From positions 38,938,001 through 39,002,000 of the forward strand of contig CM119371.1 of assembly GCA_051294905.1 (NCBI GenBank): a DNA stretch of 64,000 nucleotides, given 5' to 3'. The position numbers and the translations under genes were made by a program. Origin of the DNA: Botryllus schlosseri (taxonomy: Eukaryota). This document shows, one piece after another, positions 49,546 to 52,039 of this stretch. Within the stretch, counting starts at the first letter, position 1. Every line of letters starts with the position of its first letter. The notes beneath the pieces are model-generated. The model had not been told where the DNA came from. It was given only the letters and a program-made list of their open reading frames with translations, and searched no databases.

Positions 49546-50434
49546 ATGAATGCACTACTGAAAATAGGAACTCTTGTCGCCATGGTGGCCGTTGCCAATT
49601 GCAAGTGTAAGAGTCCGTTTGAAGTCCGTGACATTTCCAGCAATAAACAATATATATCACAATAGGTATTGTAGGAGAGTTTGATGTCGTTCAGTCGATA
49701 AAACGGAGCCAAATCTGATATCAATTATTTTTATTATCATCATAACATTTGCAGTAGTTAGTTACCTCGAATTAGTGAAAATTATCACATCATAGGTTTT
49801 GTACGCTACATATAAAAATAGGGATTATTATATGTAATCATTATCATATATTTACATATATCGTTTAGTGGCAGTGACACGAACTTGTACTTAAAATATA
49901 CGGATTGAACTGAAAACTGAACAGTTAACATAATGACTTGGACTCGGACTCGAGTCAAAACACTAGGACTCGGACTCGACTCTTTCCTTACCGACTTGGA
50001 CTTGGACTTGACTCGGTCGTGAATTGAAAATGACTCGACTTGGCTGGATTCAAAACTATAAAATTGAGATTGACTTGTGACTCGGAACCTTGTGACTTGA
50101 TAACAACCCTGGTCGAGACTCACAAGTTATATATCCACTAAAATTAGTTTTATGTTGTCTTTCAAACATGTTAACAAATCGACCTTTTCACGTCGCAGAT
50201 TTTGTTATAAGGGCTATTACAGAGAATTCTTATCATGTAAATATTACAATCTTAGGTATATCATACCGACTTGTACACAAAATATATTACATGATCTTGT
50301 CAATCCAACAGTTTCGTCGACACTGATAGTGTGATTTTACAGGCTACGGCTTTTTTGGCACCTGCTCGCCAGGAATGTATTGCGATTACGACAGTTTGTG
50401 CTCCTACGGCAACGGTCACAAGTGTGCGTACTAA
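49546..50434 (+). CDS. Small secreted six-cysteine peptide precursor, copy A (50 aa); exons 49546-49606 and 50343-50434
   Basis: Spliced translation MNALLKIGTLVAMVAVANCKCYGFFGTCSPGMYCDYDSLCSYGNGHKCAY*. Phase-1 intron gtaag...ttttacag. Putative 3'UTR intron 50439-51636 and last exon with AATAAA at 51654 and 51706. All three exons are conserved in a paralog. Confidence 0.8.
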
Positions 50435-50855
50435 AGAGGTAATGGAAGCGGTTCAAGTAAAACATTTTTGGTTTTCATTAAACGGGCGCAATTTTTCTGT
50501 TCGAAGTGTATGCATTGTGCAACCTTTCTTACATACGGAACTGATCTATGTAACTTATATAGCTAGGCCCGTTCCTGTCTTGTGATCGACATATGCTGCG
50601 TCTTACAAAAACCTAGGACAAAAGTGGGACGTGCTACTAGTCGGCAGATCAGGAATCACAATAATGGATATTGGCGATTGATGTAACATGACCATGGTAA
50701 TCGGAGAACACCATGACTAACGAAAAGAACAACAACAATAGATTTGGAGATAGTCACGAGATTCAGTTTATTGTCAGCCGGCTCTATCACAAAAGTCACA
50801 TTTTCACCCGTTTCTGTTATATTAAGTCATTGGCCCAATCTATTATGGTATAGCC

Positions 50856-51395
50856 CCGGGGGCGGGCAACTTTTGCATTCGGCGGGCCGGATGAGGGAAA
50901 ATGAAGTACTTGGCGGGCTGGACTCCTGAATCGATACAGTAAAAGCGTATTTATCCACCTGTACAAGGATTATTCGTATTTAATGTTAACTATATAAGTC
51001 TGATGCATAGAGACCGAAACAGCATTCAATCAATTTATCAACGTAATGTACTTCAATAGCTGTTGAAGTTAATGACACATCTGTGATCGATGAAAGTTGT
51101 GAACAGATTCTTTGAATTCAGGCTGCATGTCGGACACAAGGAAACAAAGAACTAAAGAATAACTAGCAATCACTTTTATTTGTGTTAGGAAGAATAACCT
51201 ACAGTCGCTATGATTTGACGTAGTAAGCAAGTATAGTTTATAATTGCGGCAGACTGTGGCCGTGGTCCACATTATTATGTACGACCGGAAACTGTCTGCG
51301 GGTCGCACAAAATCACGTCACGGACCGTATGTGAGCCGTCCCTGGTAAAGACGGGTCCCCGATCCCATAAAATTTCGTGCAGAACCGGCCGGGAA
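50856..51395. mobile_element. Degenerate reversed copy of the CAGGGGCGGGCAAC hAT MITE
   Basis: Left end matches the reverse complement of the 55000-55063 terminus; right end eroded. Confidence 0.6.
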
Positions 51396-52039
51396 ATTTG
51401 ACTCTTAAAGCACGCACACAATAAATTCTGAATCCAATTAGTGGTCTGAGTGTTGAAGTGAAATAATCTCCAAAAAAGCTTCATGGGTTGCAAAGTGCTC
51501 AATAATTGCATTAATCTGAAACATCTTGCTCTTATAAGTTATATAGACTTCTAGATATGACAGTCCCGTGAGTAAAAGGGGACTGTATAGATAGGCGAAA
51601 GGATAATATCAGAAATTATGCATTTCATCTTTGCAGGATCCAGTGCTTCCGGAAATAAAGATCAACGAGAAAATGCAACAATTTATATTGACTGCCACAG
51701 ATATAAATAAATCGGGCGATGCAAATTGTCACAAATATATTGCTTTGATGGGGTGAGGGGGACGAATTGTGTTTCATAAAGCTCCAATGATGGAAGTTTT
51801 GGCATTTCGTGATCACAAGTGTGGGTCATTCTTGACTTTGCGAAGGTTATATATGCTCTAGGTTTTCTTCATACAGCGAGAATACGAGCTGACATGATCA
51901 TTAACAGGCTTAAAGATAGCAAAGTTATTTATTGATTATATATATTTATGATATTAATCAAATACACTTTCTTTCTCCGTAAACCCTAAATCATATTACA
52001 TTCGTGTACCAACTAAAAATAGTACATTGTACGCTCTCT

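Follow-up and report, generated by a model that had tools for sequence, protein, structure and literature searches.

A 64,000-nt window of Botryllus schlosseri DNA (CM119371.1, 38,938,001-39,002,000, forward strand; all positions below follow the numbering of this window) probably contains a real hidden gene, weakly expressed, for a small, presumably secreted peptide that is near neutral, rich in Tyr and Gly, built on Cys residues and without a database family. This gene, copy A, occupies 49546-51711 on the plus strand. A second copy, copy B, lies with all three exons 8.8 to 10.2 kb downstream and is, judging from its sequence, a pseudogene. As eukaryotic DNA rich in introns, with a GC content of ~40%, the window has only 10 stop-to-stop frames that reach 120 aa or more. 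Genes so small and split escape annotation.

The gene anatomy described in the initial annotation was found again in the sequence: an ATG at 49546, a phase-1 GT-AG intron, a stop, a donor 4 nt beyond the stop, and AATAAA. Exon 1 (49546..49606, 20 codons plus 1 nt) encodes a predicted signal peptide, with a hydropathy peak at residues 7-17. Intron 1 (49607..50342, 736 nt) opens on the donor GTAAGA at 49607 and closes on the acceptor TTTTACAG, whose last base is 50342; a branch-like CTGAY is placed at -19 from this first acceptor, in copy A and copy B alike. Exon 2 (50343..50438, 96 nt, stop at 50432-50434) encodes the Cys-rich mature peptide. The predicted intron 2 (50439..51636, 1198 nt, GT-AG) would lie in the 3′ untranslated region (UTR), between the donor GTAATG at 50439 and the acceptor CATCTTTGCAG (last base 51636), an acceptor that is present in copy B too. 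The last exon (51637..51711) is predicted to be non-coding, with AATAAA at 51654 and 51706. Once spliced, copy A yields a 50-codon frame in which codons 19, 21, 28, 34, 40 and 48 are for Cys. The possibility that exon 3 encodes a pro-domain was ruled out, as a coding-type substitution pattern was found in no frame. The stop lies 4 nt 5′ of the last junction, and the transcript would therefore evade nonsense-mediated decay according to the 50-nt rule.

Three exons may be an undercount. An acceptor-like site, TTTCCCAG, is found 13 nt 5′ of the ATG (49525..49532, plus strand) and also in copy B, where it ends at 58363. The homology of the two copies starts abruptly at this site: 32 of 76 positions are identical in the 79 nt on its 5′ side, and 15 of 21 in the next 21 nt. 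Because the site is present in both copies and the homology starts there, the ATG exon may be preceded by another exon, or the site may serve for trans-splicing.

Four of the 24 RNA runs deposited under the same species label were mapped to 49000-52000, 3 to 25% of each run being read, with a threshold of three reads for listing a splice joint. At this threshold, none of the four runs gave a splice joint of copy A. Intron 1 contains a repeat of the GACTCGAGTCAAGT type (49905-50113) that draws hundreds of RNA reads from its other copies; such copies are the source of nearly all mapped reads, and the joints seen there are not GT-AG, so that they are not splice junctions. Outside intronic repeats, depth in run X1 (single-cell, 22.2 million records, ~3% of the run) is restricted to three bins, at 0.87, 0.02 and 0.89. 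These correspond to 88 letters in 49505-49605, 2 in 49606-49706 and 90 in 50313-50413, all in a single orientation. The sum, 180 letters, is that of two 90-nt sense reads, the exon-1 part of each ending at 49606. Such a pattern would be produced by two randomly placed unspliced reads with a chance of ~3×10−6, and by two junction reads split 90/90 with a chance of ~2%. Given this sum and the 2 letters of the middle bin, we infer that two sense reads, possibly copies of one molecule, span 49606/50343, a junction derived from depth arithmetic and not displayed as such. In run X3 (bulk), 96 letters fell on exon 1 only, from partly fitting reads. Run X7 had no reads on the exons of copy A, and run X10 had reads nowhere on the stretch, hence offers no test. 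The two junctions initially put forward for a check in RNA fared differently: 49606/50343 is supported by the two reads deduced in one of the four runs, whereas 50438/51637 found no read. The gene is apparently transcribed weakly or in rare cells.

Chance controls were run on resampled windows. A rule describing a signal-like exon with a phase-1 donor, applied to both strands, picked exactly two sites in the window, which are copy A and copy B. The same rule yielded a mean of 0.575 sites in 40 resampled windows, with at least two sites in 7 of the 40; 2 of the 40 windows contained a signal exon and, not more than 3 kb after it, a Cys-rich terminal exon. These controls bring modest support, because all rules were devised after the gene was seen.

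Copy B combines well-kept and broken parts. Its exon 1 (58377..58440, plus strand, as are its other exons) is an intact signal peptide exon with the donor GTAAGA, identical to copy A at 45 of 54 positions of the signal codons. Exon 2 (60585..60684; 57/87 identical) is broken: it has a frameshift near 60655-60660, a Phe codon at the position of Cys28, so that 3 of the 4 exon-2 Cys codons are retained, and no GT donor past the aligned stop. The last exon (60840..60942; 78/102 identical) has kept its acceptor and lost both AATAAA, no AATAAA or ATTAAA being present in 60686-61100. The first 100 nt of the two introns are identical at 71/98 and 63/100 positions. Frameshift, Phe at Cys28, loss of the donor GT and loss of AATAAA make four independent lesions, for which reason copy B is read from its sequence as a pseudogene; one lesion might be an assembly error, and it is unlikely that all four are. 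The signal part has been kept better than the mature part, both in nucleotides (83% versus 66%, p=0.03) and at replacement sites (pN 0.15 versus 0.37, p=0.02). No further copy was found in the 64-kb window beyond copies A and B. A dead tandem copy of this kind is a birth-and-death pattern.

The precursor of copy A has the features of a predicted signal peptide, with a basic n-region (Lys at 6), a hydrophobic core up to residue 17, and small residues at two candidate cleavage sites. Signal peptidase sites follow a small-residue rule at -3/-1, and two motifs are available, Ala-Val-Ala at 15-17 and Ala-Asn-Cys at 17-19. A cut after Ala17 would leave 33 residues with six Cys (spacing 1-6-5-5-7) and a mass of ~3.65 kDa, and a cut after Cys19 31 residues with five Cys (spacing 6-5-5-7) and a mass of ~3.44 kDa as a monomer. 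We rate the two cuts as about equally likely. The framework of the initial annotation, six Cys in 33 residues, thus holds for the first cut and fails for the second, equally plausible one. Both mature forms have a pI of 6.7 and contain five Tyr and five Gly next to two Phe; the net charge of the peptide comes to -0.2 at pH 7. This bears out the near-neutral, Tyr/Gly-rich composition noted earlier as well as the statement that this is not a classical cationic antimicrobial peptide.

The five-Cys form, in which two disulfides would close within the chain and one thiol would stay free, has close to an even chance of being the true product. Ala-Asn-Cys obeys the -3/-1 rule, and the presence of Ala at codon 19 of copy B (Ala-Asn-Ala at the same codons) favours this second site. 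Hydropathy moreover drops only when residues 18-20 enter the averaged span. The free thiol would allow a covalent dimer or a tether to another protein, and a precedent exists in the ascidian peptides halocidin and dicynthaurin, in which one disulfide links the chains (PMC10608444). However, the site Ala-Val-Ala at 15-17 is no less regular, and both copies carry two Cys near the N-terminus, adjacent in copy B and in a Cys-x-Cys arrangement in copy A, which favours an even Cys count. The five-Cys form would fit any of the functions considered below.

The initial annotation did not recognise the Cys framework. Its inner four Cys do fit the published consensus for a disulfide-directed beta-hairpin (DDH), C-X4-19-C-X2-(G/P)-X2-C-X4-19-C (PMC3381931), with Cys21-x6-Cys28-SPGMY-Cys34 followed by x5 (Cys40) or x13 (Cys48); what stands of the earlier statement is that no family matches. 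The DDH fold also has two antiparallel strands in its hairpin and disulfides I-III and II-IV. Two single-sequence models each gave two strands (residues 32-34 and 40-42 of the precursor), with a pLDDT of 61 and the true N-terminal Cys missing; two disulfide pairings compete, Cys28-Cys40 and Cys28-Cys48. Their Foldseek matches were weak, hevein-type chains making up 8/14 and 9/10 of the matches listed, and the top match was 2kus both times. According to a low-confidence prediction, Cys21-Cys34 and Cys28-Cys40 would pin the hairpin formed by residues 32-34 and 40-42, and Cys19, if retained, would pair with Cys48 at the ends, giving the I-VI, II-IV, III-V pattern reported for alpha-defensins and ascidian St-CRPs. 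The spacing 1, 6, 5, 5, 7 does not agree with the inhibitor cystine knot (ICK) consensus, C-X3-7-C-X3-8-C-X0-7-C-X1-4-C-X4-13-C (PMC4942781, PMC3381931), the first loop being too short and the fourth too long. In its mode of action the peptide most likely resembles the other small peptides of disulfide-hairpin type, and it would carry a Cys spacing not listed before on a known kind of scaffold.

Database searches agree with the earlier claim that no known family matches. No homologue was found among 5.8 billion proteins by a word-based search, which is weak for so short a query, and none in 1.84 billion representatives, Pfam, PDB sequences, Atlas or metagenome contigs. The Atlas neighbours belong to knottin and toxin clusters with scores of 0.77-0.86, all below 0.9 and in the range of shuffled sequences. 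A published description of the peptide was not found in the literature, supplementary tables (tunicate transcriptome, single-cell) aside.

Among known systems, the closest in build are the single-domain DDH peptides, such as sea star KASH2 (PMC11891777) and scorpion U1-LITX-Lw1a. Like them, the peptide is predicted to be secreted, has ~30 residues and a predicted beta-hairpin, and its four Cys fit the consensus with a Gly midway between the second and the third. It differs by one or two extra Cys and by the absence of any sequence similarity that we could find; KASH also has an acidic pro-region and a dibasic cut site, both lacking here. The six-Cys (6C) hevein-like peptides Sm-AMP-1.1a and Ac-AMP2 (PMC4695807, PMC5478723) are similar in size, in Gly, Cys and aromatic richness, and in loop lengths, which are in register. 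Their C-C-CC-C-C array is nevertheless missing, Tyr33-Cys34 standing in place of the CC pair, and none of the four hevein chitin-binding residues (Ser19 and the aromatics 21, 23 and 30; PMC5478723) is present, the aligned positions being Asp, Asp, Leu and Lys. No Pfam chitin-binding match was obtained at E up to 10. The peptide, moreover, is not basic, has no C-terminal pro-domain and comes from an animal, whereas heveins are from plants.

St-CRP-1 and St-CRP-2 of Synoicum turgens (PMC13208793) are also small, Cys-rich and neutral (pI 6.6-6.9), from a colonial ascidian, and their I-VI, II-IV, III-V bonds are those predicted here for the six-Cys form. They are however 18-19 aa long, arranged as CC-C-C-CC and amidated, against 31-33 aa, no CC pair in copy A and no terminal Gly donor for our peptide. 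Turgencins are Lys-rich, bonded I-VI, II-V, III-IV, and spaced differently (PMC13208793). The mussel MgCRP-I peptides (PMC4558851) share the short secreted Cys-rich format, the conserved signal with a variable mature part, and pseudogene copies, but have a C-C-CC-C-C array, a dibasic pro-region, a net positive charge and at least 67 loci; neither the pattern C(X3-6)C(X1-7)CC(X3-4)C(X3-5)C nor a pro-region ending in KR or RR was found in the peptide. With the MIT-like atracotoxin/prokineticin family (PF17556), the score was 14.6 bits for a cut-off of 27.5 (E 0.05), over one partial unit where two DDH units are needed. Styelin and botryllin, which are ascidian antimicrobial peptides of the classical cationic kind, are strongly charged (+11.2 for botryllin, from a 158-aa precursor; PMC9966394), helical, and cut from a long pre-propeptide, in contrast to the ~zero charge and 50-aa precursor seen here. 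Membership was rejected for hevein, ICK, St-CRP, turgencin, MgCRP-I, MIT-like and styelin/botryllin, the defining features of each being absent.

The unnamed protein P0003 (586 aa) shares with the peptide a C-x-PGM-x-C-x13/14-C core and a G-x-G before the last Cys, with 43% identity and an E of 4×10−7 summed over 8 repeats. In P0003, however, these are tandem repeats within a long protein that has a hydrophobic N-terminal segment, and Cys40 is missing. The likeness is likely due to convergence, since the best single repeat reaches only 26 bits. P0003 has about ten copies of this four-Cys repeat, and gave no convincing Pfam or Atlas family.

The function we place first, if somewhat below an even chance, is defence: the intron-split gene would produce a secreted, lineage-specific, neutral DDH peptide that binds a surface or an enzyme of microbes and does not lyse membranes. 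Splicing from 49606 to 50343, seen in the sequence and deduced from the two reads, followed by signal removal after Ala17 or Cys19, would release a neutral peptide of 31-33 residues, of which the five Tyr and two Phe form a putative binding surface. Lysis driven by charge is unlikely because the peptide is neutral. A non-lytic, binding type of defence is favoured by neutrality, by richness in aromatics, by the fast-changing mature part and by the dead tandem copy. Neutral six-Cys peptides of a colonial ascidian have moderate activity against Gram-positive bacteria (PMC13208793), sea star DDH peptides increase after injury (PMC11891777), and a conserved signal with a variable mature part is also the pattern of mussel MgCRP-I (PMC4558851).

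Several results weigh against this reading. Depth over exon 3 was zero in all runs, which leaves the junction 50438/51637 without read support. Exon 2 (57/87) is conserved no better than the pooled intron flanks and UTR (212/300, p=0.36), meaning that conservation is not coding-specific, and over 47 codons pN was 0.29 for a pS of 0.36 (p=0.5), so that purifying selection is not significant. The recurrence of three exons and their acceptors in a paralog, which had been taken to argue against chance, is real, but as an argument it is weak, because non-coding flanks have been conserved at least as well as exon 2 and pN/pS is near neutral; the paralog is, in addition, a pseudogene. Finally, for MgCRP-I, with the same evolutionary pattern, no antimicrobial activity was found (PMC4558851).

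A more novel reading is doubtful. The peptide would found a family, so far undescribed, of tunicate disulfide-hairpin peptides with a single domain. Its core would be shaped like hevein, but with the third Cys of the knot shifted to the N-terminus (C-x-C ... YC ... C). It would be a knottin-like scaffold closed with alpha-defensin connectivity, and the first free-standing DDH peptide of a chordate as far as our searches reach. Its seven aromatic residues might in this case bind cellulose, chitin or a microbial glycan.

Rather unlikely is the alternative of a signalling ligand, similar to a neuropeptide, a hormone or a gamete cue, whose hairpin scaffold would bind a host receptor. A product of rare cells would agree with the lack of net charge and with the very small number of reads, but the sequence has no dibasic cut site, no pro-region and no amidation Gly, and fast change of the mature part together with a dead tandem copy is less typical of conserved hormones. 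The sole Pfam hint was to the MIT-like family (E 0.05), and database searches found no relative. The prokineticin/colipase fold is itself made of DDH units (10.1101/485722).

It is improbable that both copies are decaying, copy A being a still-open, barely transcribed relic without current function. The dN/dS of the copies (~0.77) cannot be told from neutral, the two reads come from one run with none in X7 and exon 1 only in X3, and Cys19 could be a chance change. Yet copy A retains its start, its frame, all Cys, both donors and acceptors, the branch-like site and two AATAAA, several of which copy B lost over the same divergence, and a ratio that looks neutral is in part what comparison with a pseudogene should give. 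Least probable of all is an effector of toxin-like or antifouling type, whose targets would be enzymes or ion channels in settling larvae, competitors or predators. Toxins are commonly built on single-domain DDH or knottin scaffolds, and the neighbours in Atlas fall into clusters of knottins and toxins (0.77-0.86), but all these scores stay below 0.9, as for shuffled sequences, the ICK consensus failed, only two copies are present in the window, one of them dead, and we know of no venom tissue in sea squirts.

If the peptide is made, the Cys-rich peptides of tunicates, so far few, would gain one with a new disulfide scaffold, and with 31-33 residues it is directly synthesisable. Free-standing DDH peptides, known from arachnids and sea stars (PMC11891777), would then reach an invertebrate chordate, a matter of interest for the number of times that the fold arose. 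A new kind of mechanism is not implied: small, lineage-specific, fast-changing secreted Cys peptides are common in invertebrates.

The rest of the window holds parts of genes and repeats. Repeat copies of the GACTCGAGTCAAGT type are found, besides the one in intron 1, at ~1200-1400, 3750-3950, 59500-59670, 60260-60400 and 63050-63470. Another interspersed repeat (52041-52204) has copies at 28020-28183, 32227-32482, 34694-34802 and 62025-62166, so that both peptide genes have one copy on their downstream side. In the interval that separates these genes, a weak zf-RVT fragment on the minus strand (55236-55487) is probably a retroelement relic. A gene resembling dipeptidyl peptidase IV has exons over 705-14331 on the plus strand (DPPIV_N at 705-956, 1663-1965 and 4313-4612; Peptidase_S9 at 14095-14331); no close relative of the last of them was found. 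Further on, the plus strand carries a near-identical pair of tRNA-Leu(TAA) genes (15065-15147 and 18337-18419) and a degenerate copy, 83% alike and called Ser by ARAGORN (25278-25360), with a further partial tRNA copy near 15926. A small inverted-repeat element, MITE-like, occupies 16439-16953, with 142-nt arms that are 90% identical. Longer inverted arms (19059-19361 and 23067-23370, 79-89%) surround ~3.7 kb, in which short minus-strand frames (21448-21809) resemble what we take to be fragments of a DDE transposase, and a weak ZUO1-like match is found at 22008-22295.
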